Of a DNA stretch of 64,000 bases, positions 33,284 through 57,278 are shown one piece after another. The DNA comes from Enterobacteria phage vB_EcoM_IME340. Made by a program: the position numbers and the translations under genes. The first letter of the stretch is position 1. The number at the start of each line of letters is the position of its first letter. Where the stretch lies: sequence record MH051916; one strand, given 5' to 3'. The notes below the pieces were generated by a model. It did no database searches and was not told the origin of the DNA. It saw only the letters and a program-made list of their open reading frames with translations.

Positions 33284-33312
33284 TTTACACGGGGTTTTAG
33301 TTGTGATACTAT
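33284..33312 (+). promoter_or_regulatory. T4 early promoter (-35 tttaca, 17 bp spacer, -10 tactat)
   Basis: Conserved early-promoter cassette followed by tatcaaaac leader and ggagaataaaATG. Confidence 0.6.
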
Positions 33313-33348
33313 TACCCTATCAAAACAAATGAGTGATTGGAGAATAAA

Positions 33349-33621
33349 ATGAAAACATTTAAAGAATTTATCAATGAAGCTACTTTTAACGAAAAAGTAA
33401 AAATTAGCAAAGCTGTCAAGACTTTGATTGCTGACATCAATTACCTATATGATATTGATTTAACTGACTATGTAACAGTTGGTAACAAACGTAACTTTTT
33501 CGTGTTTGACATCTCTGAACTTGACCAGAATCAAATTAACAACATTGAGCGTTTTGCTAATGATAAGGGTCTTCGTCATGAGTCAGCGGGTTATAAAAAA
33601 TACGCAATTTATTTAAAATGA
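33349..33621 (+). CDS. ipI: Internal protein (ipI position) with capsid-targeting sequence
   Basis: 90 aa from ATG with GGAG SD (track begins at upstream TTG); N-terminus MKTFKEFINEA is a capsid-targeting sequence (T4 internal proteins begin MKTYQEFIAEA by recollection); first gene after 57B as T4 ipI. Confidence 0.75.
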   Translation: MKTFKEFINEATFNEKVKISKAVKTLIADINYLYDIDLTDYVTVGNKRNFFVFDISELDQNQINNIERFANDKGLRHESAGYKKYAIYLK

Positions 33622-33651
33622 GTTTACTTTTAAATAGGGTTGTGGTACTAT
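33622..33651 (+). promoter_or_regulatory. T4 early promoter (-35 gtttac, -10 tactat)
   Basis: gtttac, 18 bp spacer, tggtactat. Confidence 0.6.
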
Positions 33652-33681
33652 TATCTCATCAAAATTAATTAGGAAAATAAA

Positions 33682-33990
33682 ATGAAAACATTTAAAGAAT
33701 TTATCAATGAAGCGGCTGCACCAAAGACATTCGTTATTAATACTCAAGCGAGTCTTGATGATGAGTACGCGGAGGCAATTCTGAGGTCACTTGCTAAGAA
33801 CGGCGTTGAAGTAATCGCCTCGGACTTTAAGAAAGGGGCTTCCGAGATGTTTATTTCTATAACTAAAGGATCTAAAGCTAAAATCAAATCATCATTCGGT
33901 GTTGCTCGTACCGATCAAATCGACAATCATGACTTTAAACAAACTGGTGTTAAACGGCAGAACATAATTGCATCACGCGGAATAAAATAG
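33682..33990 (+). CDS. Internal-protein-like protein with capsid-targeting sequence
   Basis: 102 aa, N-terminus MKTFKEFINEAAA (capsid-targeting sequence). Confidence 0.72.
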   Translation: MKTFKEFINEAAAPKTFVINTQASLDDEYAEAILRSLAKNGVEVIASDFKKGASEMFISITKGSKAKIKSSFGVARTDQIDNHDFKQTGVKRQNIIASRGIK

Positions 33991-34000
33991 TTTATAAACC

Positions 34001-34030
34001 GTTTACTTTTAGATGGGGTAGTGATATTAT
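34001..34030 (+). promoter_or_regulatory. T4 early promoter (-35 gtttac, -10 tattat)
   Basis: gtttac, 18 bp spacer, gtgatattat, then ggagaataaaATG. Confidence 0.55.
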
Positions 34031-34058
34031 TACCCTATCAACTACTGAGGAGAATAAA

Positions 34059-34241
34059 ATGAAACGTTGTGAATTAATTCGAAATGTTGCTATTGCAATT
34101 TCTGCTTCCGCTTTTAGTTTTTCAATGTTTGTTGGATTTATATGCGGATTATTAACTACAGCAGAAAATGTGTTTTCACTTGTAGTAGCATTTTTAATTG
34201 GTTTAATTGCTATCGTTATGGATAAAATTTCTAAAGGTTAA
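34059..34241 (+). CDS. Small membrane protein
   Basis: 60 aa, two hydrophobic helices; GGAG SD; downstream of early promoter. Confidence 0.55.
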   Translation: MKRCELIRNVAIAISASAFSFSMFVGFICGLLTTAENVFSLVVAFLIGLIAIVMDKISKG

Positions 34242-34243
34242 TA

Positions 34244-34531
34244 ATGATTCTTTATGCTAAAGTATCATCCATTGAAAATGGATATAAATATGATCAAGAA
34301 GCAACTAAAGCCTTGATTGATGATTATGGCATTTTAACGTGTTTTGAAGTTGAAAAGGTTTACATTGACCGTTCATCTTCTCAGGTTAAATTAGTTAAGG
34401 AAGACCGTAAATTTAATACAGTAAATTTTGATTTCTTTATTGAAACAGAAAAAGGTCCTCTTGAATATGATATTTTCAAGAATCCTTTGGGTCTTGAATG
34501 CATCGTAAACATGTATTATCATAAATGGTAA
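34244..34531 (+). CDS. Hypothetical protein
   Basis: 95 aa ORF tightly coupled to the preceding ORF. Confidence 0.5.
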   Translation: MILYAKVSSIENGYKYDQEATKALIDDYGILTCFEVEKVYIDRSSSQVKLVKEDRKFNTVNFDFFIETEKGPLEYDIFKNPLGLECIVNMYYHKW

Positions 34532-34628
34532 ATATGCTTTAAGAATTATTTGTTATTATTAACTCATATCGCACTGATTAATACCCTCTATCATCAAGGG
34601 TTCTTGCTTGAGAGCCTTTGTTAATAAT

Positions 34629-34701
34629 TGGGAATTAGCCAAGTTGGTAAGGCACTGGATTTTGATTCCAGGATGCAAAGGTTCGAGTCCTTTATTCCCA
34701 G
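34629..34701 (+). tRNA. tRNA-Gln (anticodon UUG)
   Basis: Cloverleaf folded by hand: acceptor tgggaat/attccca, anticodon loop ttTTGat, T-arm aaagg-ttcgagt-ccttt. Confidence 0.85.
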
Positions 34702-34702
34702 C

Positions 34703-34789
34703 GCGAGAATGGTCAAATTGGTAAAGGCACAGCACTTAAAATGCTGCGGAATGATTTCCTTGTGGGTTCGAGTCCCACTTCTCGCACCA
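34703..34789 (+). tRNA. tRNA-Leu (anticodon UAA), class II, encoded CCA
   Basis: Acceptor gcgagaa/ttctcgc, anticodon loop ctTAAaa, long variable arm, T-loop gttcgag, ends ACCA. Confidence 0.85.
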
Positions 34790-34794
34790 AATTT

Positions 34795-34868
<74 letters not shown>

Positions 34869-34878
34869 ATTTAATTTA

Positions 34879-34952
34879 CTCCGTGTAGCTCAGTTTGGTA
34901 GAGCGTCTGCTTTGGGAGCAGAATGTCGCAGGTTCAAATCCTGCCGCGGAGA
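34879..34952 (+). tRNA. tRNA-Pro (anticodon UGG)
   Basis: Acceptor ctccgtg/cgcggag, D-arm gctc-agtttggtag-agc, anticodon loop ttTGGga, T-arm gcagg-ttcaaat-cctgc. Confidence 0.85.
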
Positions 34953-34954
34953 CT

Positions 34955-35044
34955 GGAGGCGTGGCAGAGTGGTTTAATGCACCGGTCTTGAAAACCGGCA
35001 GTCGCTCCGGCGACTCATAGGTTCAAATCCTATCGCCTCCGCCA
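34955..35044 (+). tRNA. tRNA-Ser (anticodon UGA), class II
   Basis: Acceptor ggaggcg/cgcctcc, anticodon loop ctTGAaa, long variable arm, T-loop ttcaaat, encoded CCA. Confidence 0.85.
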
Positions 35045-35049
35045 GTTTT

Positions 35050-35125
35050 GCTGATTTAGCTCAGTAGGTAGAGCACCTCACTTGTAATGAGGACGTCGGC
35101 GGTTCGATTCCGTCAATCAGCACCA
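35050..35125 (+). tRNA. tRNA-Thr (anticodon UGU)
   Basis: Acceptor gctgatt/aatcagc, anticodon loop ctTGTaa, T-loop ttcgatt, encoded CCA. Confidence 0.85.
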
Positions 35126-35126
35126 A

Positions 35127-35201
35127 GGCCCTGTAGCTGGAAGGTTCAAGCAAGCGACTCATAATCGCCAGATGGTGGTTCAATTCCACCCAGGGCCACC
35201 A
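35127..35201 (+). tRNA. tRNA-Ile (anticodon CAU, presumably lysidine-modified to read AUA)
   Basis: Acceptor ggccctg/cagggcc, anticodon loop ctCATaa, T-arm ggtgg-ttcaatt-ccacc, encoded CCA; T4 tRNA-Ile is known to carry a CAU-derived anticodon. Confidence 0.75.
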
Positions 35202-35210
35202 AATTAATTT

Positions 35211-35297
35211 GGGGAGTTATCCCGTAGAGGTAGCGGTGTGGACTGTAAATTCATTGTCATTGCGACTCGGGTGGTTCGACTCCATCACTCCCCACCA
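35211..35297 (+). tRNA. Class II tRNA-like gene, probable tRNA-Tyr (anticodon GUA)
   Basis: Acceptor ggggagt/actcccc, anticodon arm gtgga-ctGTAaa-ttcat (two G-U pairs), long variable arm, T-arm ggtgg-ttcgact-ccatc, encoded CCA; D-stem has a mismatch. Confidence 0.55.
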
Positions 35298-35301
35298 ATT
35301 T

Positions 35302-35376
35302 GGATGTGTAGCTCAATGGCAGAGCGATCGCCTGTTAAGCGATTGGTTATAGGTTCGAATCCTATCACGTCCGCCA
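35302..35376 (+). tRNA. tRNA-Asn (anticodon GUU)
   Basis: Acceptor ggatgtg/cacgtcc, D-arm gctc-aatggca-gagc, anticodon arm atcgc-ctGTTaa-gcgat, T-arm atagg-ttcgaat-cctat, encoded CCA. Confidence 0.8.
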
Positions 35377-35380
35377 AATC

Positions 35381-35456
35381 CGAGGCATAGCTCAGAAGGA
35401 AGAGCAAGGACCTTCTAAGTCCTAGGTCGTAGGTTCGATCCCTACTGCCTCGACCA
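35381..35456 (+). tRNA. tRNA-Arg (anticodon UCU)
   Basis: Acceptor cgaggca/tgcctcg, D-arm gctc-agaagga-agagc, anticodon loop ctTCTaa, T-arm gtagg-ttcgatc-cctac, encoded CCA. Confidence 0.8.
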
Positions 35457-35472
35457 ATTAAGTGAGGAAAAT

Positions 35473-36078: not shown

Positions 36079-36130
36079 ACAAACACTTGCCTTAGCAGGT
36101 GGAACCCCGACAAGGTTGCCGCAAGGCTTA

Positions 36131-36158
36131 GCCCCGACCGAAAGGTTGGGGCTTTTTA
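36131..36158 (+). terminator. Rho-independent terminator
   Basis: gccccgacc-gaaa-ggttggggc hairpin followed by ttttt. Confidence 0.65.
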
Positions 36159-36247
36159 GTTTGAATCACATAGAGAATGCTGTTACGGATAATAACAAAG
36201 TAATAAATAATTAATAACCAACCGATAAATTATTTCAAGGATTTTAA

Positions 36248-36811
36248 ATGAAAACCTATGCCGAGTTTTTAACCGAAGCAGCAAAATTACCATCTGAAGC
36301 AGATCTTACTAAAGTATTCTTCCACTTGGACCCAAAAGACCGCGGCGATTTTCTTAAGTGGAAAGCTAAAGCTATTGAAATGTATAACATTGATAATAGT
36401 TCTTTTACGATGAGTCAAGAAAATAAATTCAATAAAGCATTTTTCAAAATTTCTAAGAAACTGGCATCTGGCGCTCAGGTTCCTAAATCTGCCTTAGCTA
36501 CTCCTGAACGTGCACCTGTCAAAATTTCTAAGAATATGTTCGACACTAAAAAATACGTTAATGCTTTGAATAAAGCTCTTGATGCATTGGATGATGCAAA
36601 GAAGGCAGCCCGTGATCTTCAAGATGTGTACACCGATTTTGATCGTAAAACTAAAGGTTCTATTTCAAATAGCGAACGCAATAGTGTAAGTGTTTATTCT
36701 GATAGTCTTGATGTTCTTGGCGATGCGTATACTGAAATTAAAAATCGTATTAACACCGCATCTAAGCTAAAAGCTGCCGCAGAAGCTATAATAACTAAAC
36801 TAGATAAATAA
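36248..36811 (+). CDS. Internal-protein-like protein with capsid-targeting sequence
   Basis: 187 aa; N-terminus MKTYAEFLTEAAK (capsid-targeting sequence); lysine-rich helical body. Confidence 0.7.
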   Translation: MKTYAEFLTEAAKLPSEADLTKVFFHLDPKDRGDFLKWKAKAIEMYNIDNSSFTMSQENKFNKAFFKISKKLASGAQVPKSALATPERAPVKISKNMFDTKKYVNALNKALDALDDAKKAARDLQDVYTDFDRKTKGSISNSERNSVSVYSDSLDVLGDAYTEIKNRINTASKLKAAAEAIITKLDK

Positions 36812-36819: not shown

Positions 36820-36846
36820 CCCTATCTAAATGATAGGGCTTTTTGG
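36820..36846 (+). terminator. Rho-independent terminator
   Basis: ccctatc-taaat-gataggg hairpin followed by ctttttgg. Confidence 0.6.
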
Positions 36847-36977
36847 TATCTAGGCCTTTCCGGGCCTCTCTAGGCATCATTTAGTTTATATCCTTTATAA
36901 TATATTATCCTACCTTTTAATTGCCCCTCCCCGCCCTAGAATTCCCCAAAACTTTTTAAAAATTTTTTCACAAAACT

Positions 36978-37007
36978 GTTTACATCCCTGTTCTTCCATG
37001 GTACTAT
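36978..37007 (+). promoter_or_regulatory. T4 early promoter with A/T-rich UP element
   Basis: aaactttttaaaaattttttcacaaaactGTTTACa, 18 bp spacer, ggTACTATacaactatcaact. Confidence 0.65.
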
Positions 37008-37051
37008 ACAACTATCAACTACTGATACAGAAAAACAACTTGGAGAATAAA

Positions 37052-37315
37052 ATGGATAATTACGGCGAACTGTTCAACTTCTTTATGAAATGTGTTTCAG
37101 AAGATTTTGGTCGTACAGTGAATGATATTAAAGTTATCGGTCCTGATCATCCGATGTTTGAAACTTACGCAGTAATGGGTAATGAAGATGGTCAGTGGTA
37201 TACTGTAAAGGTTGTGATTAACATGTTCACTGCTGAAGGTTATGTTAAACTGTCTTCTAAAGTTTACCATGATAACGATGAAATCGCAGAAGAATATTTC
37301 AATAATATGAAATAA
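37052..37315 (+). CDS. Hypothetical protein
   Basis: 87 aa from ATG (MDNYGELF) with ggagaataaaATG; the track ORF began upstream across the promoter. Confidence 0.55.
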   Translation: MDNYGELFNFFMKCVSEDFGRTVNDIKVIGPDHPMFETYAVMGNEDGQWYTVKVVINMFTAEGYVKLSSKVYHDNDEIAEEYFNNMK

Positions 37316-37383
37316 TTGTGTACAAACACCAAGGACGGTGTTATTATAGACTTATCAAAACAAATACAGAAACGGAGAAATAA

Positions 37384-37560
37384 ATGACTACTTTAATTAT
37401 TTGGTTTGACGAAAATGAAGAAACATACTGCGTGAACATTGGCGAAAGCCCAATGCCAGAATTTGAATCTTCGGATAAAAACTCGGTTGTATCTTGGGCT
37501 GAAGGTTATAAAGCAGCAAAAGGCGATGTTGAAATAGTTTACAAACTATCCGGAGTATAA
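37384..37560 (+). CDS. Small hypothetical protein
   Basis: 58 aa ORF (MTTLIIWFDENEETYC...) with GGAG SD, below the track's size threshold. Confidence 0.4.
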   Translation: MTTLIIWFDENEETYCVNIGESPMPEFESSDKNSVVSWAEGYKAAKGDVEIVYKLSGV

Positions 37561-39208: not shown

Positions 39209-39533
39209 ATAAAGTCAAATATTCGTTTCCTGAGTCATTTTTAATTTTTGCTGTGGCGTTGGCTGCAGCTCTTGCGGGTAGTCTTTTTGGATTGTTAATT
39301 GACTGTCTTATTTTAAACATCGACGGCACAGTAAATATAACAGAAGTTTGGAGTGAACTTCGCTATACTAAAATTATTTCATTATTTTCATTCTTTGGTA
39401 CCATGTTATATTTTCATTATGATAATTTTAAAATAAATTGGCAAAGAAAAAAAGATTACAAAATACAATTAAAAGAATATAATAGCTACATGTCTTATAT
39501 TGAAAATGAATCAATGAAAGAGTTTGTGAGTGA

Positions 39534-39552
<19 letters not shown>
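39190..39552 (+). CDS. Membrane protein
   Basis: 120 aa; two predicted transmembrane helices. Confidence 0.55.
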
Positions 39553-40795
<1,243 letters not shown>

Positions 40796-40796
40796 T

Positions 40797-40826
40797 GTTT
40801 ACTTCCTCCAAGGACTTTGATACTAT
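40797..40826 (+). promoter_or_regulatory. T4 early promoter (gtttac / tactat)
   Basis: gtttac, 18 bp spacer, tgatactatacattcatcaacta. Confidence 0.6.
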
Positions 40827-40853
40827 ACATTCATCAACTACTTGGAGGAAATT

Positions 40854-41267
40854 ATGACTCGTATCAATTTAACACTTGTTTCTGAACTGACCGACCAACA
40901 TCTTATGGCTGAGTATCGTGAATTACCACGCGTATTTGGTGCAGTCCGTAAACATGTTCAAAACGGTAAACGTGTAAAGGATTTTAAAATCTCTCCAACA
41001 TTTATCTTAGGCACAGGTCACGTAACATTCTTTTATGACAAACTCGAATTTTTACGTTTACGTCAAATCGAGCTAATCGCTGAATGCTTGAAACGTGGTT
41101 TCAAAATCAAGGACACGACTGTCCAGGATATTTCCGACATCCCTGTCGAATTTCGTAATAATTATGTCCCGTCCGAAGCGTCCATTGCGATAAGTCAAGC
41201 TCGCTTAGATGAAAAAATTGCTCAACGCCCTACTTGGTACAAATACTATGGTAAATCAATTTACTAA
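40854..41267 (+). CDS. denV: Endonuclease V (pyrimidine dimer glycosylase) DenV
   Basis: ATG at [31 protein letters not shown], matching recalled T4 endo V; the track ORF began 4 codons upstream. Confidence 0.93.
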
Positions 41268-41273
41268 GGAAAA

Positions 41274-41534
41274 ATGAAAATGTATCAAGAATTTATCGCT
41301 GAAGCAGATGCCAAAGGCCCCAAATTTAAAGTTAAAGCTTTCGTTGGTGATGCCGAAGATTTTGGCTCATTAAAACGTAATGGGTATTTTTTCTTAGGTG
41401 GTGATGGTAAAGAAATCAACACCTATGCAAAACGTAGTGAAATTGCTTATGTTGCTGCAAGTCCTAAAGTAGATGTTGACGATATTGGATACGATTTTAA
41501 CAACTTCGGAATTATTTCTGGCGGTGAAGCTTAA
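41274..41534 (+). CDS. Internal-protein-like protein with capsid-targeting sequence
   Basis: 86 aa; N-terminus MKMYQEFIAEA. Confidence 0.7.
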   Translation: MKMYQEFIAEADAKGPKFKVKAFVGDAEDFGSLKRNGYFFLGGDGKEINTYAKRSEIAYVAASPKVDVDDIGYDFNNFGIISGGEA

Positions 41535-41537
41535 ACG

Positions 41538-41568
41538 GTTTACGCTTAAGTATTAATATGGTATAATT
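41538..41568 (+). promoter_or_regulatory. T4 early promoter (gtttac / tataat)
   Basis: gtttac, ~19 bp spacer, ggtataattactctatcaaaac. Confidence 0.55.
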
Positions 41569-41597
41569 ACTCTATCAAAACAAACAAGGAAACAAAA

Positions 41598-41912
41598 ATG
41601 AAAACATATAAAGAATTTATTGCAGAATCCGCCAACCAACGCGTTGAAGGTGGTTATATTTGGATTGAACAAGTTGAGCCACCGAGCCGCACTTCTACAG
41701 GTAAATGGAAAATTACTGTTGATGGTCCTGGTGGTAAACGTAGGACTCTTAAAGAAATTAATGGGTACTATGAAGAAGCTCTTTCGGATGCAGGAACTTA
41801 CATGATGCAAATCATGATTAAAAACCCTGAAAACCGTTTTGCAGCTAAAGTCTTCCGACGCATCGGTAATAAACTTTATGACGCATACTCTAAAAACTTC
41901 CCTAAAGAATAA
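41598..41912 (+). CDS. Internal protein, ipII-like size
   Basis: 104 aa; N-terminus MKTYKEFIAESA (capsid-targeting sequence). Confidence 0.72.
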   Translation: MKTYKEFIAESANQRVEGGYIWIEQVEPPSRTSTGKWKITVDGPGGKRRTLKEINGYYEEALSDAGTYMMQIMIKNPENRFAAKVFRRIGNKLYDAYSKNFPKE

Positions 41913-41938
41913 CATGAATTAAAACAATAGGAACAAAA

Positions 41939-42517
41939 ATGAAAACGTATCAAGAATTTATTGCTGAAGCTTCTGTAGTAAAGGCCAAAGGCATTAATAA
42001 GGACGAGTGGAACTATCGTGGTGGAAACGGCTTTGACCCTAAAACAGCCCCTATTGAACGATACTTAGCTACAAAAGCTTCCGATTTTAAAGCTTTCGCT
42101 TGGGAAGGACTTCGCTGGCGTACCGATTTAAATATTGAAGTTGACGGACTTAAATTTGCTCATATTGAAGATGTTGTTGCTAGTAACTTAGACGCAGCTT
42201 TTGTTAAAGCCGACAGTGATCTTCGTCGCTGGAATTTAAAACTGTTCTCTAAACAAAAAGGCCCGAAGTTTGTGCCTAAAGCCGGTAAATGGGTCATTGA
42301 TAATAAATTAGCTAAGGCTGTCAACTACGCTGGTCTTGAATTCGCCAAGCACAAATCATCATGGAAAGGTCTTGATGCAATGGCTTTCCGTAAAGAATTT
42401 GCCGATGTTATGGCTAAAGGCGGCTTTAAGGCAGAAATAGATACCTCTAAAGGTACGTTTAAGGACGCTAATGTTCAGTACGCTTACGCCGTTGCTAATG
42501 CAGCCCGTGGTAATTAA
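41939..42517 (+). CDS. Internal protein, ipIII-like size
   Basis: 192 aa; N-terminus MKTYQEFIAEAS, identical over the first 11 residues to the capsid-targeting sequence recalled for T4 internal proteins. Confidence 0.75.
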   Translation: MKTYQEFIAEASVVKAKGINKDEWNYRGGNGFDPKTAPIERYLATKASDFKAFAWEGLRWRTDLNIEVDGLKFAHIEDVVASNLDAAFVKADSDLRRWNLKLFSKQKGPKFVPKAGKWVIDNKLAKAVNYAGLEFAKHKSSWKGLDAMAFRKEFADVMAKGGFKAEIDTSKGTFKDANVQYAYAVANAARGN

Positions 42518-42694
42518 TAAGGCCGATACTTAGGCCTATTTACATTCAAATAACATGGGAACAACCTGGACCTCATGATTCTATGAGGGATTCCCGCCAA
42601 CCTGTAATAAGGTCGAGCCCAAGTGCGGTAATGGGTAAATACAGAAATGGACAATTCACGCGCCATGGAATGGCCCAAATTTAGAGAGAATAAA

Positions 42695-43237
42695 ATGAGA
42701 ACATTTTTAACTGGTCCTTATCTATCCCTGATGAATGCTTTTACACACCATTCTGATGCTAGAGTAGAAGAAATTTGTAATAGTGGATTTTATGTACCTG
42801 ATTCGCCACATTTATTTAAAGAATACTGCACACTTCGATTAGATGGTGGACGTCAATCCGGTAAATCAACTGCAGTAACTAATTTTGCCGCTAATTGGTT
42901 GTATGACGGTGGAACAGTTATTGTTCTTTCTAATACTTCAGCTTACGCTAAAATTTCTGCGGGCCACATTAAAAAAGAATTTTCACGCTATTCTAATGAT
43001 GATATTCGATTCCGTTTATTTACTGATTCTGTCCGTAGTTTTGTTGGTAATAGAGGTAGCAAGTTCAGAGGTTTATCGCTTTCGCGGATTTTGTATATAA
43101 TCGATGAGCCTGTTAAATCTCCTGATATGGATAAAATTTACGATATTCATATTGAAACTGTGCAATACTGCTGCAATAGTAAATGTTGCATTGGTGGTAT
43201 TACTCGTCCACAGTTTTTCGTAATTGGAATGCAATGA
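42695..43237 (+). CDS. P-loop NTPase
   Basis: Walker A GGRQSGKST and Walker B-like ILYIIDEP; start placed at MRTFLTG with gagagaataaaATG (track ORF began 16 codons upstream). Confidence 0.6.
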   Translation: MRTFLTGPYLSLMNAFTHHSDARVEEICNSGFYVPDSPHLFKEYCTLRLDGGRQSGKSTAVTNFAANWLYDGGTVIVLSNTSAYAKISAGHIKKEFSRYSNDDIRFRLFTDSVRSFVGNRGSKFRGLSLSRILYIIDEPVKSPDMDKIYDIHIETVQYCCNSKCCIGGITRPQFFVIGMQ

Positions 43238-43563
43238 TGACAGATACGCAACTTTTCGAATATCTTTATTTTTCGCCAAAAACTATTAAAAATAAATTGG
43301 TGAATCATTTTGAAATTTTGGCAAATAACAACGTCTTGAGCGAATTTTATCCTAAGCAATACAAATTACAAAAAGGCGTATTCAAAGGATGCAGAGTTTT
43401 GTGTACTGCTCCTAATGCAAGATTAATGAATAAAATTCCATATTTTACCATGGAATTTATTGATGGACCTTTTAAAGGACTAATCACCCAAAGTTTAATG
43501 GCATATGATTCTGAGCCATTTTTAATTAAAGAACAATCTTGGATAAATTTATTTTCTAATTGA
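43234..43563 (+). CDS. Hypothetical protein
   Basis: 109 aa from ATG overlapping the previous stop (ATGATGA). Confidence 0.5.
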   Translation: MMTDTQLFEYLYFSPKTIKNKLVNHFEILANNNVLSEFYPKQYKLQKGVFKGCRVLCTAPNARLMNKIPYFTMEFIDGPFKGLITQSLMAYDSEPFLIKEQSWINLFSN

Positions 43564-43569
43564 GGTTAT

Positions 43570-43932
43570 ATGAAAGCATATCAAATTCTTGAAGGCACGC
43601 ATAAAGGTACTATTTATTTTGAAGATGGTATTCAAGCACGAATTATTGTCTCTAAAACTTTTAAAGATGACTCTTTTGTAGACCCAGAAATTTTCTATGG
43701 TTTGCATGCCCGTGAAATTGAAATTGAAACACAACCTACAGTTAAAATTGAAGGTGGTCAACACCTGAACGTTAACGTTCTGCGTCGTGAAACTCTGGAA
43801 GATGCAGTTAAGCATCCGGAAAAATATCCGCAGCTGACCATCCGTGTATCCGGATATGCAGTTCGCTTTAACTCTCTGACTCCGGAACAGCAACGCGACG
43901 TTATTGCTCGTACCTTTACTGAGAGTTTGTAA
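43570..43932 (+). CDS. Autonomous glycyl-radical cofactor, GrcA/YfiD-like (T4 Y06I family)
   Basis: 120 aa; C-terminal [24 protein letters not shown] glycyl-radical motif. Confidence 0.85.
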
Positions 43933-44153
43933 TGGCAAAGATAATTATTGAAGGTTCTGAAGATGTGCTAAATGCTTTCGCCGAGTGGTTTAGTAATTCA
44001 GGCGAACAGCAATTTAATGAAGCGTGGAACATGGGTGATATTAGTGGAATTTATCCTACGACAGAAATTTCTGTTCAAGGATATGGAATTCATGAACCTA
44101 TTCGTTTAGTTGAATATGATTTGGGAACAGGTGAGGAAGTAAAATATGATTGA
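43932..44153 (+). CDS. Hypothetical protein
   Basis: 73 aa ORF, start overlaps the preceding stop. Confidence 0.5.
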   Translation: MAKIIIEGSEDVLNAFAEWFSNSGEQQFNEAWNMGDISGIYPTTEISVQGYGIHEPIRLVEYDLGTGEEVKYD

Positions 44154-44412
44154 AGACATTAAAGGTTATAAGCCACATACTGACGATAAAATCAGTAAAG
44201 TGAATGCTATCAAAGACGCTGAAGTTCGTTTAGGACTTATCTTTGATGCTTTATACGATGAATTCTGGGAAGCACTAGATAATTGTGAAGACTGTGAATT
44301 CGCGAAGAATTATGCTGAAAGCCTCGATCAGTTAACTATTGCTAAAACGAAACTCAAAGAAGCCAGTATGTGGGCTTGTCGTGCTGTGTTCCAACCAGAG
44401 GAAAAATATTAA
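44146..44412 (+). CDS. Hypothetical small helical protein (vs.4 position)
   Basis: 88 aa; coupled to neighbours. Confidence 0.5.
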
Positions 44413-44690
44413 TGGCTCAATTAAGCGCAGGGTTTGGTTATGAGTATTATACTGCCCCTCGTCGTGTATCTGTTGCTCCTAAGAAAATTCAAAGTCTTGA
44501 TGACTTCCAGGAAGTAGTTCGTAAAGCTTTCCAGGACTATGCGAGTTATCTTAAAGAAGATTCACAGGACTGTCTCGAAGAAGATGAAATTGCTTACTAT
44601 GAGCAGCGTCTTGAACAGCTCAAAAACCTACATGAGGTTCGTGCAGAAGTTACAAAGTCTATGAATAAATTGATTAGATTTAAAGAATAA
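44412..44690 (+). CDS. Hypothetical small protein
   Basis: 92 aa from ATG at MAQLSAGF overlapping the preceding stop. Confidence 0.5.
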
Positions 44691-44693
44691 CTG

Positions 44694-44723
44694 TTTACTT
44701 TTCCTCTTGACTGTGGTATAATT
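44694..44723 (+). promoter_or_regulatory. T4 early promoter (gtttac / tataat)
   Basis: gtttac, 18 bp spacer, tgtggTATAATttttctatcag, then gaggagaataacATG. Confidence 0.65.
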
Positions 44724-44749
44724 TTTCTATCAGTTAAGAGGAGAATAAC

Positions 44750-45211
44750 ATGACTATCAACACAGAAGTTTTTATCCGTCGAAATAAGCTTCGTCGTCAC
44801 TTTGAGTCGGAGTTTCGTCAAATTAACAATGAGATTCATGAGGCATCAAAAGCAGCAGGAGTCTCATCGTTTCATCTAAAATATTCTCAACATCTTCTTG
44901 ATCGTGCAATTCAACGGGAGATTGATGAGACATATGTTTTTGAATTATTCCACAAAATAAAAGACCATGTTTTAGAAGTTAATGAATTCCTGAGTATGCC
45001 TCCGCGTCCTGACATTGATGAGGATTTTATTGATGGAGTTGAATATCGCCCTGGACGTTTAGAAATTACAGATGGAAATCTTTGGCTTGGATTTACGGTT
45101 TGTAAGCCTAATGAGAAGTTCAAAAACCCGTCACTTCAATGCAGGATGGCAATTATCAACAGTCGTCGTTTACCAGGAAAGGCTTCTAAAGCAGTAATTA
45201 AAACTCAATGA
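44750..45211 (+). CDS. regB: Site-specific endoribonuclease RegB
   Basis: 153 aa, same length as T4 RegB; basic N-terminus; expected position between vs genes and denV side. Confidence 0.8.
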   Translation: MTINTEVFIRRNKLRRHFESEFRQINNEIHEASKAAGVSSFHLKYSQHLLDRAIQREIDETYVFELFHKIKDHVLEVNEFLSMPPRPDIDEDFIDGVEYRPGRLEITDGNLWLGFTVCKPNEKFKNPSLQCRMAIINSRRLPGKASKAVIKTQ

Positions 45212-49035: not shown

Positions 49036-49059
49036 AGTCTCCTTCGGGAGACTTTTTTC
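49036..49059 (+). terminator. Rho-independent terminator
   Basis: agtctcc-ttcg-ggagact hairpin followed by tttttt. Confidence 0.75.
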
Positions 49060-49068
49060 ATTTTACCG

Positions 49069-49098
49069 GTTTACTTTCCGTTTGAGCTGTGGTACTAT
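49069..49098 (+). promoter_or_regulatory. T4 early promoter (gtttac / tactat)
   Basis: gtttac, 18 bp spacer, tgtggTACTATacaactatc, then gaggagaacatcATG. Confidence 0.65.
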
Positions 49099-49126
49099 AC
49101 AACTATCGGATAAAGAGGAGAACATC

Positions 49127-49315
49127 ATGAAAATTGAAGCACTCAATCAAGAAGGAAATATCTACGTCATCATTAACGGTGATTTTTTCGTCGACATGGA
49201 TGAAGTTACCAGTGAAGAACTTGAAGAACTTCTTAAGAAACGTTATGATATGTGTGATGAAGCTGCAACTCATATGGCGTGTGCAATATTCTCTCTTTCA
49301 TATGTGGTGGAATAA
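49127..49315 (+). CDS. Small acidic protein
   Basis: 62 aa from ATG at MKIEALNQ with GAGGAG SD. Confidence 0.5.
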
Positions 49316-49715: not shown

Positions 49716-49878
49716 AAAGCAGATGTTTTTAATGAAGCTAATTGAAGAATATGCTAATGCAGTTTCTGACTATGAGTGTTCTTCTCGTGAAAGGGGTATA
49801 GCTTTCGCAAAAGAAGAAATGAAAATCATGGTTGATGCTCACACAAAGCTTCAGAATTTTATTGAAAACGTCATTTAA
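49705..49878 (+). CDS. Small helical protein, ~60 aa paralog family member
   Basis: 57 aa ORF (MKTEKQMFLMKLIEEYANAV...) overlapping the previous stop; below the track threshold. Confidence 0.45.
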   Translation: MKTEKQMFLMKLIEEYANAVSDYECSSRERGIAFAKEEMKIMVDAHTKLQNFIENVI

Positions 49879-49880
49879 CG

Positions 49881-49910
49881 GTTTACAAGTTGGCAAGGTT
49901 ATGGTATAGT
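49881..49910 (+). promoter_or_regulatory. T4 early promoter (gtttac / tatagt)
   Basis: gtttac, 18 bp spacer, tggTATAGT. Confidence 0.55.
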
Positions 49911-49938
49911 AATCTTGTCAACTGCTAAGGAGAAGAGA

Positions 49939-50043
49939 ATGAAAATTTTGTTTGTTGTGTATGTGATGATTCAATATAATTACCCAATGTTTACGTATAA
50001 TTTGGTGAACAACATTATTGATATTATTCAAAGGAGTATGTAA
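49939..50043 (+). CDS. Very small hydrophobic ORF
   Basis: 34 aa (MKILFVVYVMIQYNYPMF...) with aaggagaagagaATG directly after the promoter. Confidence 0.3.
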   Translation: MKILFVVYVMIQYNYPMFTYNLVNNIIDIIQRSM

Positions 50044-52774: not shown

Positions 52775-52776
52775 TA

Positions 52777-52802
52777 GGGAGCCTTCGGGCTCCCTTTTTT
52801 AT
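52777..52802 (+). terminator. Rho-independent terminator
   Basis: gggagcc-ttcg-ggctccc hairpin followed by tttttt. Confidence 0.75.
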
Positions 52803-52825
52803 TTCAAAATTTTTTTCACAAAACG

Positions 52826-52855
52826 GTTTACAAGCATAAAGCTTTATGGTACTAT
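52826..52855 (+). promoter_or_regulatory. T4 early promoter with UP element
   Basis: aaaatttttttcacaaaacgGTTTACa, 18 bp spacer, tggTACTATacaactatcaact, then ggagaataaaATG. Confidence 0.65.
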
Positions 52856-52889
52856 ACAACTATCAACTGATACGGATTTGGAGAATAAA

Positions 52890-53858
52890 ATGAAAACTGT
52901 AACTATCAATAAGGGTATCTACTTCGGTAAAGAAATCTCTGGAACTTTTGAGCTCTTAGGCGAATGGTTCCCAGATAATGCTCCGGTAGATGCACAAGGA
53001 GATGGTAAAGTTTTTGTTGAAATTGACGGTAAACGTCGCGGTGTTTGGGTTTACAAATCAGATATTTCATATGATGGTGTAAAAGTTGAAGAAGTTAAAG
53101 AATCGTATGAAGATATGAAAACCCGCATTAATAAAAGATTTAATGTTATGGGAATGATGACGAATGGTATTATTAATGGAAATATTCGTTCATTAATTAT
53201 CTCTGGCGCAGCAGGTATTGGTAAAACGTATTCTTTAGATAAAGCTTTAAATAAAGCAAATGATAATGGATACATTGAATATAAAAGCATTAATGGTAAA
53301 ATCTCTGGTATTGGTCTTTATGAGCAGCTTTGGAATAATCGTGAAGAGAATTCTGTCCTTTTGATTGATGATGTGGATGTTTTTTCTGATATGGACATTC
53401 TTAATCTTCTGAAAGCTGCTCTGGACACTGGAGAGACCCGTAAAGTCTGCTGGAGCACTGCATCTTCTTACTTAGAAGAAAAAGGCATTGACCGTGAGTT
53501 TGAATTTAAAGGAACGATTGTTTTTATCACAAACGTTGACATTGACCGCGAATTAGACCGTGGTACTAAACTTGCCCCACACTTACAAGCATTAGTGTCA
53601 CGCTCAGTTTATTTGGATTTGGGTGTTCACACTAATGAAGAAATTATGGTCAGGGTTGAAGATGTTATTCTTTCAACTGACATGATGCAAAAGCGCGGTC
53701 TTTCTGATGAAGAAACTTATAAAGCATTATCATGGATGAAAGTTAATGTTAATCGTTTACGCAATGTTTCACTGCGTACTGCTCTTTATCTTGCTGACTT
53801 TATTATGACCGACAAAAACGGTTGGGAAGAAATTGCTGAGGTTACTCTTCTGAAATAA
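52890..53858 (+). CDS. AAA+ ATPase
   Basis: 322 aa from ATG at MKTVTINK; Walker A SGAAGIGKT, Walker B VLLIDDVD. Confidence 0.72.
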   Translation: MKTVTINKGIYFGKEISGTFELLGEWFPDNAPVDAQGDGKVFVEIDGKRRGVWVYKSDISYDGVKVEEVKESYEDMKTRINKRFNVMGMMTNGIINGNIRSLIISGAAGIGKTYSLDKALNKANDNGYIEYKSINGKISGIGLYEQLWNNREENSVLLIDDVDVFSDMDILNLLKAALDTGETRKVCWSTASSYLEEKGIDREFEFKGTIVFITNVDIDRELDRGTKLAPHLQALVSRSVYLDLGVHTNEEIMVRVEDVILSTDMMQKRGLSDEETYKALSWMKVNVNRLRNVSLRTALYLADFIMTDKNGWEEIAEVTLLK

Positions 53859-53959
53859 TTCATAAGAGGACTTCTATGACAAAAAGGCAGTTCAGAAATA
53901 GATTATATGGACTGCCATTAAAAAGATGACTAGAATTAAACTGGTAAATGGAGGTAGTG

Positions 53960-54262
53960 ATGTTATACTCAAAGGCTCGTGAAATTTACGAAACTAAGAT
54001 TAAAGAAGCTGTATTTCAATTTGCAACGACAATGCGATGGACAAATGACTGGGAGTATTCAAAAAATCATAAGAAGCCCATGGTGACAAGAAAGGCTCAC
54101 ATGTTAGTGTTAATAGACCGTGAGCAGATTAAAGCCCGAGAAGCCCTCCAGAATCATAAAAAGGCTGCCTTTGAATGGTTTATGGATAACACTGCTCCCG
54201 AGACTAAGAAAGCAGTGAGCGCATGGTTCAGTGGAAAAAATTGTGAAAGAAGTTTCTTTTAG
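53960..54262 (+). CDS. Hypothetical protein
   Basis: 100 aa from ATG at MLYSKAREIY with GGAGG SD. Confidence 0.5.
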   Translation: MLYSKAREIYETKIKEAVFQFATTMRWTNDWEYSKNHKKPMVTRKAHMLVLIDREQIKAREALQNHKKAAFEWFMDNTAPETKKAVSAWFSGKNCERSFF

Positions 54263-54264
54263 TG

Positions 54265-54294
54265 GTTTACAAGACTGTTCCTCTGTGGTACTAT
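54265..54294 (+). promoter_or_regulatory. T4 early promoter (gtttac / tactat)
   Basis: gtttac, 18 bp spacer, tgtggTACTATacaactatcaactac. Confidence 0.65.
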
Positions 54295-54322
54295 ACAACT
54301 ATCAACTACGGAGGAACACAAA

Positions 54323-54850
54323 ATGAACGCTAAAGATATTTTCAACTTGGTAAATTACAACGATGGTAAATTTAAATCTGAAGCACAAAGTAAGTTCTTT
54401 AATGACATCTCAATCGGAGGTGAAATCACTGTTGATGGAGGACAAATTTACAAATCCCGTTGGAATTGGATCGTTATTATCGATGAGATTGGTATTGTAG
54501 AAATTTACAAGAATACGAATAAAAATCGTACATTACACTGGTCTCGTGATACTAACGAACAGTACAAAAAGGATAAAGCATCTAAATTATCTCGTGTAAC
54601 TCAAGAAGATATTGAGTTCATCAAGAAAGATATTTTAATGTATGATAATTTAATTGCTGAAGAGCAAGCTGTTATTGATAAATTTGACGAGATTAAAGCT
54701 TCTCGTGAAATTCCTGATTTTATGAAAGAATCAGTGAATGAACGATACACTCTCATTTCAGAGCGTATTGAAACTTACAAAAAGCAAAGAGCTGAACGCC
54801 AAAATACTCTTCGGAAGTTTGAAGAACGGTTAAAGACGGTACTCGCATAA
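54323..54850 (+). CDS. Hypothetical protein with C-terminal coiled coil
   Basis: 175 aa; SD ggaggaacacaaaATG. Confidence 0.6.
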   Translation: MNAKDIFNLVNYNDGKFKSEAQSKFFNDISIGGEITVDGGQIYKSRWNWIVIIDEIGIVEIYKNTNKNRTLHWSRDTNEQYKKDKASKLSRVTQEDIEFIKKDILMYDNLIAEEQAVIDKFDEIKASREIPDFMKESVNERYTLISERIETYKKQRAERQNTLRKFEERLKTVLA

Positions 54851-54905
54851 CCGCTTTATACCAAGGATGGTATAATGGTTCTAAGCCCTTTTAATTGAGA
54901 TTATT

Positions 54906-55313
54906 ATGAAACAGTTGATAATTAAAAGATTGAATTTATTGATATGTTGTTTATGTGTAGTAGTTGCATACGGTTATTACGCAATTAATGATTATATGCA
55001 CTATAAAGATTATGATGTTACTGTAGTTAATACTATTACAGGAACACAAGGAAAAGGGTCTAGTTTATCGTTTATTGCCGTATATGAACTCAAAGACGGT
55101 TATAGATTTAGTGAATATATTTCCCCAGAGATGTATTCTTCAATAGAAAAAGGTGATAATATTACTGTAAGTTTACGTCCTTTCGACGTAAAACAGACAC
55201 TGTTTGATAATATTATTTGGTTCTTTGGGATGGTATTAGTTCAATCTGTGTGTGGTGCTTACGTAGTCTGTTCCATCTTATTCTGTATATTTAGTAAAAT
55301 TGAAATTGAGTGA
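54906..55313 (+). CDS. Membrane protein
   Basis: 135 aa; N-terminal and C-terminal transmembrane helices flanking a soluble domain. Confidence 0.6.
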   Translation: MKQLIIKRLNLLICCLCVVVAYGYYAINDYMHYKDYDVTVVNTITGTQGKGSSLSFIAVYELKDGYRFSEYISPEMYSSIEKGDNITVSLRPFDVKQTLFDNIIWFFGMVLVQSVCGAYVVCSILFCIFSKIEIE

Positions 55314-55320
55314 GGAAAAT

Positions 55321-56211
55321 ATGTCAGTCGTAATTAATAATGTCAATGCAGTAATTAAATCTTTAGTTAATAAAAAAATGATGAATGAATGGACTGTATT
55401 TCGTCGTGGAGAGCCAGATAAATTTTTTCATAGATTTAACCCAACTTTGGATTTGAATGTTATTGACAGAGATGTTCATGCCGAAATTTTAGATAAGTTT
55501 AAAGTTGATATTGGCTTTGGATTAGAAAAACATTTACAGCGAACAAATGGGTCTGGAATGAGTTTATCTAATCGCATTATGAAAGCCCTTAATAAAATTG
55601 GAGCGTTGTCTCGTATTAATGCGAGTGAAATCCTTCGTAATTATAATAAAGGATATGACCTTTATGGTCGACTAATGCCGAAATTATCATTCGATCAAAT
55701 GATAGCGGATTTGTGGGAAAATCAACGACGATTATTAGCATTAGGCGCTCGATTAGCTAAAGGTCTAGATAAACAAATGATTTTTAAGACCAATAATACA
55801 GAAGACCTTAAATGCTTTAAATTTAGTATTCGTGGAGATGATTATTACATCAGAGCTCGCTCTACAGATTATGTTAATATGGGGCATCATCTCTGTTTGG
55901 CTTTTGAAGTTTTAAAAGAAGCTGGAACATTAGAATATTCATCTGGTGCAAAATGCCCTATTGGTTCAAGTTGTATTTTAATTTATCGCCCGGATGAATC
56001 CAGTTCAACTAAATTGCCTACGAAACCTGTACCAGTTCGTAGTAACGAAAAACATTCTGAACAAATTGATTATTTTAATAAACAGATTGAAGAGCTGAAT
56101 ATTTCTATTCAACAATATGACGATGAAATTTTCAGACTATCTGGATTGAGTAGTAAAGCTAAATCTGAGCGTGAAAAGTTAATTAAAATTGTTGATTTAC
56201 TTAAATCTTAA
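55321..56211 (+). CDS. Paralog family protein A (variable N-domain, conserved C-terminal coiled coil)
   Basis: 296 aa from ATG at MSVVINN (track began at upstream TTG); C-terminal KPV linker plus coiled coil shared with the next three ORFs. Confidence 0.62.
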   Translation: MSVVINNVNAVIKSLVNKKMMNEWTVFRRGEPDKFFHRFNPTLDLNVIDRDVHAEILDKFKVDIGFGLEKHLQRTNGSGMSLSNRIMKALNKIGALSRINASEILRNYNKGYDLYGRLMPKLSFDQMIADLWENQRRLLALGARLAKGLDKQMIFKTNNTEDLKCFKFSIRGDDYYIRARSTDYVNMGHHLCLAFEVLKEAGTLEYSSGAKCPIGSSCILIYRPDESSSTKLPTKPVPVRSNEKHSEQIDYFNKQIEELNISIQQYDDEIFRLSGLSSKAKSEREKLIKIVDLLKS

Positions 56212-56219
56212 GGAACACT

Positions 56220-57248
56220 ATGAAAACTCGTTCTCAAATTGAAGATATGGTTCGTAACGCTAGCGATACTCGTGATGTTATGACATTTTTGTGTGAAAAT
56301 AATTTAGATTTTGATAAAGTTAATCGTGCTATTCATCACTTTAAATATCTGAATAGCAGTGAATGGGTGCGTAATTTTAGTAAAGCAGGGTATATTACGC
56401 AAATGACTGCTCGTGAGCAGCTCACCGATTTCTGTAAAACTATTGATTATAAAAATCCTCTATTTGTTCAAGGCGTTGGTCAAAGTAAGGTCAATTTATC
56501 ATCTGGATTTTTCAATCCAAATCATTATCGTATTGAATGGAGATTTATTGCTCTGTTCCGTAGACAATTAAAGCAAATTTTATCAACTGCGAGTCGATTA
56601 AAAGGTTCTGATATTAACTTAAAGAATCTGAAATTTGATGGTTATACTCTTCAGATGGAAGTAAGACCATTAAAAGAAAATAATAGAACCGCACGAATTA
56701 GCTTTAAACCTAATACAAAAAATTCTCTTTCAATTTGTGAATGCCTTAAATCACAGTTGACAGAAGCATTTAAGTATATGGATGTTGTTGCTGGTGTTCA
56801 GTCTAAGATTTCAAAGCATTTCGAACGATTTAAATTAGACACAACAACATATGAACTTGATATGATCGTTTCATTTAAATACGATTTTTTGAGAAAGGAT
56901 GAAGTCACGCAAGAGAAAAAGCAGGAAGTGCAAGATAACTTAAATTTAAATTTATCCAATTACTCATCAAACGATCCTAAATTTTGGATGTATAGTTCAG
57001 GTAATAAGGATGCATGGAAATTCAATAAAGTGAATTTTCTTCCTGTTGAAAATCCGAGTCTTAAACCTGTTGAAAAATGGCATGCTGATGCGATTGAGAA
57101 GTCTATCAAGGCAGTAGATGATGAACTCGTTAAAGCAACTAATGAAGTGTTAGAAGCTGAAAAGATGTTAGAAAAAGCTCAAGAAAAAGTCAAAAATCTC
57201 ACGAAGCAACGTTCTAAACTGAACAATGCACTAAATGCACTGAACTAG
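56220..57248 (+). CDS. Paralog family protein B
   Basis: 342 aa; shares the W..F...L...A..L core motif and C-terminal coiled coil with A, C and D. Confidence 0.62.
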   Translation: MKTRSQIEDMVRNASDTRDVMTFLCENNLDFDKVNRAIHHFKYLNSSEWVRNFSKAGYITQMTAREQLTDFCKTIDYKNPLFVQGVGQSKVNLSSGFFNPNHYRIEWRFIALFRRQLKQILSTASRLKGSDINLKNLKFDGYTLQMEVRPLKENNRTARISFKPNTKNSLSICECLKSQLTEAFKYMDVVAGVQSKISKHFERFKLDTTTYELDMIVSFKYDFLRKDEVTQEKKQEVQDNLNLNLSNYSSNDPKFWMYSSGNKDAWKFNKVNFLPVENPSLKPVEKWHADAIEKSIKAVDDELVKATNEVLEAEKMLEKAQEKVKNLTKQRSKLNNALNALN

Positions 57249-57278
57249 TTTACTTTACCACAAGGATGTGGTATAATG
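57249..57278 (+). promoter_or_regulatory. T4 early promoter (gtttac / tataat)
   Basis: gtttac, 18 bp spacer, tgtggTATAAT, then gaggagattaatATG. Confidence 0.6.

Follow-up and report, generated by a model that had tools for sequence, protein, structure and literature searches.

Candidate T4-type early-promoter cassettes in the accessory arm of coliphage vB_EcoM_IME340 and their occasional use as crossover points

We analysed a stretch of 64,000 nucleotides (nt) from Enterobacteria phage vB_EcoM_IME340 (record MH051916; the whole stretch is called the window below), in which an initial annotation had seen the same module of promoter, leader and ribosome binding site (RBS) recurring in front of twelve accessory genes. 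All twelve sites are present, all on the coding (+) strand, and we consider it likely, with a probability of about 0.85, that these cassettes are sigma-70-dependent early promoters of the T4 kind, each fused to a short 5' leader and to the Shine-Dalgarno (SD) sequence and start codon of the first gene in an early transcription unit (Table 1). Their identity as promoters rests on consensus and orthology, and the transcription starts and RegB cleavage sites discussed below are predicted from the sequence. The finding is real and right in outline, overstated in detail, and ordinary: each of its elements, namely the T4 early promoters, the RegB/S1 site, the capsid targeting sequence, the middle promoter PnrdC.7 and the proposed shuffling of genes by cassettes, also at the internal-protein loci, is already known from publications. 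It leaves the current understanding unchanged, and a role of such sequences as substrates of recombination has been proposed since 1994 and 2010. Its use lies in annotation, where the cassettes would mark early transcription units and identify the accessory genes expressed in the first minutes of infection.

By its closest matches the phage is a Tequatrovirus, a T4-like coliphage. A megablast search with positions 33000-57500 matched 1,239 phage records, the best being Escherichia phages vB_EcoM_G4498, HMD-9 and UFV13, which cover 92-95% of the query at ~96% identity. Alignment to the T4 records puts the T4 map in reverse orientation relative to the window, and shows that the cassette region corresponds to the T4 arm leading from ipI through the tRNA cluster, e, the internal-protein (ip) genes, denV, vs, regB, tk, rI and mobD to nrdC.x, one of the classical non-essential, early-transcribed, "hyperplastic" arms of T-even phages. 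For the comparisons below we used nine relatives (T4, G4498, HMD-9, JoYop, Shfl2, VIPECOOM01, RB14, T6 and RB51) and a set of 66 protein genes modelled in 33000-61500, twelve of them headed by cassettes and 54 others.

Architecture and conservation of the cassettes

When aligned on the -35 element, all twelve copies keep one fixed register, (G/A)TTTAC followed by 14 nt and nTGnTAnnnT, which amounts to a 17-bp spacing with an extended -10 TG at -15/-14. GTTTAC is exact in eleven copies and replaced by ATTTAC in one (33283), and the -10 element is TACTAT, TATAAT, TATTAT or TATAGT. Counted between TTTACn and TAnnnT, the spacing is exactly 17 bp in every copy. Nine of the -35 starts were placed correctly, while three had to be moved by one position (33284 to 33283, 44694 to 44693 and 57249 to 57248). 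A start region, cTATCAa, is conserved 4-5 nt past the -10, the most conserved positions of all being the -35, the TGn and the -10. The UP region is only modestly enriched in A+T, with a mean of 0.73 over the 24 nt upstream of the -35 against a background of 0.65 (standard deviation 0.10 for single 24-mers); several copies have the motif TTTCACAAA(A/G), and in four copies the A+T content is at or below background.

The motif is strongly over-represented. GTTTAC-N15-21-TANNAT occurs 13 times against 1.8 expected, a count that none of 100 shuffles reached, and 11 of the 13 matches are annotated cassettes, the remaining cassette being the one with ATTTAC at 33283. A weight matrix built from the twelve copies gave leave-one-out scores of 13-41 bits, compared with a null maximum of 12.2, and a scan of the whole 64 kb with this matrix returned the twelve copies and two weak ones (37318 and 60674), all on the + strand, with no match in the late-gene half (1-33000). 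A generic sigma-70 scan found 73 promoter-like sites where 73.2 were expected; since there is no enrichment of generic promoters, the signal is that of the specific T4-type consensus. The combination of generic sigma-70 and terminator scans was accordingly rejected as a cassette detector, as it does not single out the cassettes.

Early promoters of this class are textbook knowledge for T4, and they (Pe; sigma-70 'UP/-35/TGn/-10' promoters) were reportedly treated by Liebig and Rueger in 1989 and by Miller and colleagues in 2003. The published consensus combines an A-rich UP region with GTTTAC at -36..-31 and a -10 of the sigma-70 type (Nolan 2006, PMC1524935), the promoters have been termed "uber" UP/-35/TGn/-10 promoters with extra consensus regions (Hinton 2010, PMC2988021), and that of regB has been called a typical early promoter (Uzan & Miller 2010, PMC3014915). 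In T4 the same motif stands upstream of ipI, trna.4, e.8, ipIII, regB, mobD.5, mobD.2, nrdC.10, nrdC.8 and nrdC.4, and cassettes in the window are orthologous to the T4 sites of ipI, trna.4, e.8, regB, mobD.5, mobD.2, nrdC.10, nrdC.8 and nrdC.4. The orthologous arm of each of the nine relatives has 12-15 such sites. Seven of the cassettes lie outside the ip loci, and these have mismatches at 0-3 of 46 nt in nearly all nine relatives (four exceptions have 4-6), and the presence of the five cassettes at ip loci varies together with the ip genes. The match to the consensus, the UP element and the orthology to T4 sites thus all favour the assignment as T4 early promoters made in the initial annotation. 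Furthermore, sixteen T4 promoters outside this arm carry the same module with the cTATCAa start region included, and the leader motif therefore belongs to an early-promoter consensus that holds throughout the genome, not to a local repeat. Two points weigh on the other side: the T4 GenBank and RefSeq records annotate no promoter features in this arm, and a literature search did not find a genome-wide map of T4 transcription starts.

In the mechanism that we propose, the unmodified host RNA polymerase would bind four elements together, the A/T-rich UP region, the -35 (GTTTAC) and the -10 with its TGn extension, and transcription would begin some 7 nt past the -10, at the A within cTATCAa. The predicted transcripts begin with A in eleven of the twelve cases and with AUCA in ten, and the resulting leaders of 21-38 nt (22 nt at 57248) are essentially unstructured, with minimum free energies no lower than -2.1 kcal/mol.

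The copies are much less alike than the initial description, "near-identical", had implied. The mean ungapped pairwise identity of all aligned copies is 46% over 85 nt (range 32-69%), and on this figure the idea of near-identical repeats was rejected. The longest exact string common to two copies has a median length of 10 nt, and exact runs longer than 20 nt are common to only three or four copies. Within promoter sequence the longest run is 24 nt (36978 with 54265). A run of 38 nt between 33283 and 33622 consists of RBS and coding sequence, not promoter, and the repeat reaches into the genes there because both encode the same targeting peptide. The identical repeats of 40-70 bp that had been invoked as homology for exchange do not exist within the window, where exact promoter runs are at most 24 nt and the crossovers resolved below involve 10-48 nt. 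The sub-motifs that had been attributed to the cassettes are likewise confined to some of the copies: TATACAACTATCAACT is exact in three only and found with three mismatches in two more, GGAGAATAAAATG is present in four only, and ATGAAAAC, which encodes Met-Lys-Thr (MKT), in four of the twelve. Some of the promoter spacers are palindromic, with TACCACAAGGATGTGGTA at 57256-57273 (spacer and extended -10 of 57248, also found at T4 2458) and ATAAAGCTTTAT in the spacer of 52826 (52832-52849).

One element that had been listed as a truncated copy, at 54853-54876, belongs to another promoter class. It agrees with the pattern of MotA-dependent middle promoters, which is a (t)GCTTtA box near -30 followed after 11-13 nt by TAtaAT (Nolan 2006, PMC1524935). 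PnrdC.7 is listed among the identified MotA-dependent middle promoters of T4 with a start site at 53325, which lies 23 nt before the nrdC.7 ATG, and the geometry in the window is the same. The element is thus the MotA-type middle promoter PnrdC.7 and not a decayed early promoter.

Table 1. Predicted cassettes and related elements in the window (SD, Shine-Dalgarno sequence; single numbers are first positions).
Feature	Span (strand)	-35	-10	SD	ATG	Gene and remarks
Cassette 1	33258..33351 (+)	ATTTAC 33283-33288	TACTAT 33307-33312	GGAGAATAAAA 33339-33349	33349	internal head protein, N-terminus MKTFKEFINE
Cassette 2	33597..33684 (+)	GTTTAC 33622	TACTAT 33646-33651		33682	second internal head protein, same targeting peptide as cassette 1 gene
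Cassette 3	33976..34061 (+)	34001	TATTAT 34025-34030	GGAGAATAAAA 34049	34059	trna.4 orthologue
Cassette 4	36953..37054 (+)	36978	TACTAT 37002-37007	GGAGAATAAAA 37042	37052	e.8; leader AUCAACUACUGAUAC...
Cassette 5	40772..40856 (+)	40797	TACTAT 40821-40826		40854	denV (pyrimidine-dimer glycosylase)
Cassette 6	41513..41600 (+)	41538	TATAAT 41562-41567		41598	gene with targeting peptide MKTYKEFIAE
Cassette 7	44668..44752 (+)	44693	TATAAT 44717-44722	GGAGAATAACA	44750	regB; 46-nt core with 0-1 mismatches in 9/9 relatives; right end of the T6 deletion
Cassette 8	49036..49129 (+)	49069	TACTAT 49093-49098		49127	mobD.5 orthologue; terminator hairpin 49036-49053; complete promoter-early-stem-loop arrangement
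Cassette 9	49856..49941 (+)	49881	TATAGT 49905-49910		49939	mobD.2 orthologue
Cassette 10	52776..52892 (+)	52826	TACTAT 52850-52855	GGAGAATAAAA 52880	52890	nrdC.10; terminator hairpin 52776-52795
Cassette 11	54240..54325 (+)	54265	TACTAT 54289-54294		54323	nrdC.8
Cassette 12	57223..57308 (+)	57248	TATAAT 57272-57277		57306	nrdC.4
Weak extra copy	37293..37386 (+)	GTGTAC 37318	TATTAT 37342-37347		37384	22.9 bits; left edge is an indel boundary (37315)
Weak promoter-like site	60674..60703 (+)	GTTTAC	TATAAT			GTTTAC-N18-TATAAT, TGn absent; 14.9 bits; region orthologous to T4 pin; status uncertain
MotA-box middle promoter	54853..54876 (+)					GCTTTA-N12-TATAAT, identical to T4 upstream of nrdC.7
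Terminator-like hairpin	36820..36838 (+)					~140 nt upstream of cassette 4; coincides with indel boundary 36820-36836

Leaders, RegB sites and the internal-protein starts

The transcribed part of the cassettes is distinguished by its SD sequence. GGAG occurs in the SD of at least nine of the twelve cassette genes (ten by eye) but only 8 of the 54 others (p=1e-4). In four leaders the RBS is GGAGAAUAAAA, which fits the strong intergenic cleavage consensus of RegB with S1, an 11-nt GG*AGRAYARAA (Durand et al. 2006, as summarised in the review of Uzan & Miller 2010, PMC3014915). RegB cuts its own SD sequence and requires an unstructured site (Uzan & Miller 2010, PMC3014915), and the leader of regB itself, in the cassette at 44693, has GGAGAATAACA. 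The string GGAGAATAAAA is an exact match to this consensus, and GGAGRAYARAA is found exactly only four times in 64 kb (33339, 34049, 37042 and 52880), each time inside a cassette and directly before the ATG. The sequence that drives early translation would then also be the likely site of its shut-off by the phage's own RegB nuclease, and the cassettes predict which mRNAs RegB is likely to switch off. Such a shut-off would account better than recombination for the fact that the RBS segment is conserved.

It could be argued from this that the transcribed part (AUCAACUACUGAUACGGAUUUGGAGAAUAAAAUG) owes its conservation mainly to a role in the RNA, as a RegB/S1 target and translation-initiation region, with promoter strength and recombination being secondary. 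The confinement of the 11-nt consensus to cassettes, the strong enrichment of GGAG and the lack of structure in the leaders that RegB requires all fit such an explanation. However, the full site is found in only four of the twelve copies and GGAG is missing from two, an Rfam search of the leaders and the surrounding region returned tRNAs only and no RNA family, and the strongest conservation is in the -35, TGn and -10, none of which is transcribed. We therefore find it doubtful as the main reason for conservation and keep to the promoter assignment.

The cassettes had also been said to explain why the accessory open reading frames start with MKT. This causal claim is wrong, because MKT starts, found in 12 of the 66 modelled genes, are not enriched in cassette genes (4 of 12 compared with 8 of 54 others, p=0.21) and because four of the seven genes with a targeting peptide have no cassette. 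An N-terminus of the form MK(T/M)(Y/F)xEF(I/L)xE is encoded by these seven genes (33349, 33682, 36248, 40514, 41274, 41598 and 41939), five of which match PHROG families of internal head or virion proteins. It is the capsid targeting sequence of T4 internal proteins (Mullaney & Black 1996), in which, according to the review in PMC9026906, ten N-terminal residues are enough to direct packaging into the head, and the gp21 protease cleaves them off; the propeptide of about ten residues is MKTYQEFIAE-like, with Glu at its end (PMC9026906). The MKT starts thus come mainly from the internal-protein targeting sequence and not from the cassettes. Two genes, 36248-36811 (phrog_2280) and 41598-41912 (phrog_3966), begin with this peptide (MKTYAEFLTEAA and MKTYKEFIAESA, respectively), and their products may be further injected head proteins.

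Crossovers at cassettes and elsewhere

A further proposal of the initial annotation was that the cassettes provide homology for modular exchange of the genes between them. We collected breakpoints as the boundaries of indels and replacements of at least 30 nt from chained blastn alignments of the window with the nine relatives. Several events end in cassettes. T6 is without the stretch corresponding to window 40511-44691 (ip genes, denV and the orthologues of vs.3-vs.8), its e stop codon being followed by TGTTTACTTT and then by the regB promoter; since in T4 it is the ipIII promoter that follows e at this place, the T6 crossover can be confined to 10 nt around the -35. G4498 has an extra ip gene of 225 nt between two cassettes, and the single window cassette at 34001 is a chimera of these, with the spacer of the upstream G4498 copy and the leader of the downstream one, the two overlapping by 48 nt. 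At cassette 10, HMD-9 has an insertion of 604 nt, in which a gene of 486 nt has a terminator hairpin and a promoter on either side; the window has a single terminator-promoter unit (52776-52855), with 17 nt of overlap in the T-tract. The inserted gene (HMD-9 24761-25246) carries the annotation RNA polymerase ADP-ribosylase and would be an accessory gene that was taken up as a cassette. Finally, the bodies of ip genes are exchanged over the stretch from where the targeting peptide ends (33369-33384 and 41626-41627) to the next cassette (34001-34021), a pattern that is ascribed to Repoila et al. 1994 in Comeau 2014 (PMC4122927).

Overall, 11 of 55 breakpoint clusters fall within cassettes, which make up 6.2% of the sequence (binomial P=4.6e-4, relative to random positions). 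Several observations nevertheless speak against a general role. Breaks are no more frequent at cassette junctions than at the other junctions between genes (8 of 12 vs 30 of 64, p=0.35), and this remains so when tRNA junctions are left aside (21 of 53 others, p=0.11) or when only other junctions with spacers of at least 25 nt are considered (6 of 11, p=0.68), so that a preference for cassettes over other gene junctions was rejected as not significant. The direction of each event, insertion or deletion, is not readable from the comparison. The sequence common to both sides of resolved crossovers is short, 10-48 nt, and most indels end elsewhere, at RBS microhomology, a terminator repeat or a homing-endonuclease insertion. 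Recombination in T4 is said, in work attributed to Singer and co-workers in 1982, to drop steeply below about 50 bp of homology, which fits short repeats acting only rarely.

The other junctions are instructive in themselves. The gene trna.3 (~400 nt), present in all nine relatives, is absent from the window at 34232-34244, where the junction is a 13-nt similar stop/RBS/ATG sequence, and e.2 (455 nt; in eight of nine relatives, G4498 also being without it) is absent at 39523-39552 with a 30-nt junction; both junctions consist of stop/RBS/ATG sequence (e.g. TGCAGGAAATTAAAATGA) and involve no promoter. A strong terminator hairpin at 36127-36166 (AGCCCCGACCGAAAGGTTGGGGCTTTTT) has a duplicate in HMD-9, VIPECOOM01 and RB51, where the two copies enclose an additional gene of 474 nt, a paralogue of 36248-36811, and the RB51 record itself mentions a '34 bp imperfect direct repeat'; judged by this pattern, the event is a terminator-to-terminator recombination. 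At 53839-53875 the window has an empty site for a seg-like homing endonuclease gene; JoYop, VIPECOOM01, RB14, T6 and RB51 have an insertion of 722-732 nt there, between nrdC.10 and nrdC.9. Promoters are therefore one of several kinds of short regulatory punctuation used as crossover points.

Could the cassettes then be promoters only, alike through selection for strong binding of RNA polymerase, with indels ending there as any viable indel ends between genes? The junction counts given above (8/12 vs 30/64, and 6/11 for spaced junctions), the many indels at RBS microhomology or at terminators without promoters and a mean pairwise identity of merely 46% all agree with this. We regard it as unlikely, since cassettes are chimeric exactly at indel junctions, non-orthologous promoters have spacers identical at 14 of 14 positions and exact runs of 32-54 nt (described below), neither of which is needed for promoter function, and recombination between such cassettes in RB49/phi1 has been demonstrated by inverse PCR (Arbiol et al. 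2010, PMC2839356). What stands of the exchange proposal are the particular events and the ip loci; a general preference over other gene junctions does not, and the homology is 10-48 nt, not 40-70 nt. Likewise, the comparison of gene content across relatives that had been suggested as a check found several cassette-bounded indels and swaps but no excess over other junctions. The alignments thus suggest that the cassettes occasionally act as crossover points for deletion, insertion and replacement, most clearly at the internal-protein loci, as individual events and not as a general rule. These events show exchange sites of anti-defence genes, such as those of the injected internal proteins, among T-even phages.

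The identical spacers come from comparisons with non-orthologous T4 promoters. The cassette at 52826 and the site at T4 146875 (upstream of frd.3) have an exact run of 54 nt that includes the spacer (14/14), 57248 and T4 2458 have a run of 32 nt (spacer 14/14), and 36978 and T4 27080 (imm.1) a run of 41 nt (spacer 11/14), where a spacer identity of at least 13/14 has a null probability of 5e-5 per pair. The exact 22-mer TGGTACTATACAACTATCAACT has 21 sites in IMG/VR, six of them in one genome of 169,650 bp, and it precedes at least seven unrelated genes, namely the orthologues of e.8, nrdC.10, nrdC.8, imm.1, motA and denB and one gene of the ndd region. This sub-family often also has a common upstream part of terminator, T-tract and AAAAATTTTTTCACAAAAC, and therefore a module of about 100 nt appears to have been copied or homogenised between loci. 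As a secondary role, then, the cassettes form a dispersed repeat family, in which sub-families have non-functional spacers in common with promoters up to 90 kb away in T4. With 14/14 spacers, runs of 32-54 nt at such distances and a 22-mer before at least seven unrelated genes, it is tempting to go further and see a genome-wide family that is kept in step by ongoing copy-and-paste (gene conversion, or excision and re-insertion of cassette-bounded genes) and does not merely consist of selected look-alikes. We put this forward tentatively, at rather less than even odds. If it is true and rates of exchange can be measured, T-even phages would capture genes mainly at their early promoters. This has already been published as the promoter-early-stem-loop (PeSL) hypothesis, and only a quantitative demonstration would be new.

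In its strongest form this hypothesis has the cassettes as mobile PeSL units, which would leave the genome together with the flanked gene as mini-circles and integrate again at other cassettes, actively spreading genes and homogenising the copies. Mini-circles bounded by such cassettes have been shown in RB49/phi1 (Arbiol et al. 2010, PMC2839356), and the model of a mobile regulatory cassette has been extended to PST/T4, where PST-type stems are weak and variable and the promoter consensus is TTTACW-N17-TAYWAT (Comeau, Arbiol & Krisch 2014, PMC4122927). The HMD-9 insertion, with a terminator and a promoter on either side of its gene, and the recurrence of the same module, spacer included, at unrelated loci would be expected from such mobility, and all twelve cassettes have the SD and start codon at the 3' end, as in PeSLs. 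However, the stem-loop part is found in only two or three of the twelve: significant hairpins lie directly upstream of just two (49036-49053, z = -2.5; 52776-52795, z = -3.9), which counts against the model, another nine have no upstream hairpin beyond those of shuffles, and one further hairpin lies about 140 nt upstream of 36978, so that a universal upstream stem-loop was rejected in favour of one at 49069 and 52826 only. Moreover, the seven cassettes away from the ip loci keep their places in all nine relatives, the junctions can be explained just as well by ordinary homologous or microhomology recombination, and circles are not visible from sequence alone. We consider active mobility of this kind unlikely, and return to the view of the cassettes as early promoters at which crossovers occasionally take place.

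There are ten tRNA genes at 34629-35456 (Gln, Leu, Gly, Pro, Ser, Thr, Met-CAU, Tyr, Asn and Arg) compared with eight in T4, and segB is absent; the tRNA content is different in every relative, with homing endonucleases inserted in some. In nrdD the window has no intron, T4 having 1,035 nt more (the I-TevII intron), and the counterpart of T4 mobC (~600 nt) is absent; the two differences map to 62413-62416 and 63692-63712. The nrdC.10 orthologue (52890-53858) has weak Pfam matches to AAA/STAND NTPases, all under the gathering cut-offs (E ~1e-4).

Comparison with known systems

As composite regulatory cassettes in hyperplastic regions, the copies resemble PeSLs in their TTTACW-N17-TAYWAT promoter, the SD and start codon at the 3' end, the indel junctions inside cassettes and the genes flanked by two of them. 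They differ in that a convincing upstream stem-loop is present at only two or three of the twelve, and that breakpoints show no excess over other gene junctions in the nine-genome test. The T-even internal-protein loci offer another parallel, with a conserved 5' regulatory region and a targeting peptide of about ten residues in front of a swapped gene body, and with the same breaks, one where the targeting peptide ends and the other at the cassette that follows; in contrast to the pattern described for these loci, the window phage has seven targeting-peptide genes, four of them without an early-promoter cassette. Candidate RegB/S1 sites are the exact GGAGAATAAAA directly before the ATG in four leaders and the GGAGAATAACA of the regB leader; apart from the four, the eight cassettes have GGAG alone or none. 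The PnrdC.7-like element departs from the middle-promoter consensus only at the base before GCTT, which is C where the consensus has T. With respect to the T4 early promoters themselves, GTTTAC, the 17-bp spacing, the TGn, TAnnnT, the A/T-rich upstream region, the conserved start region and the orthologous positions are all the same, and nothing substantive is different: the window phage simply has its own set of promoters at the ip loci and one ATTTAC copy.

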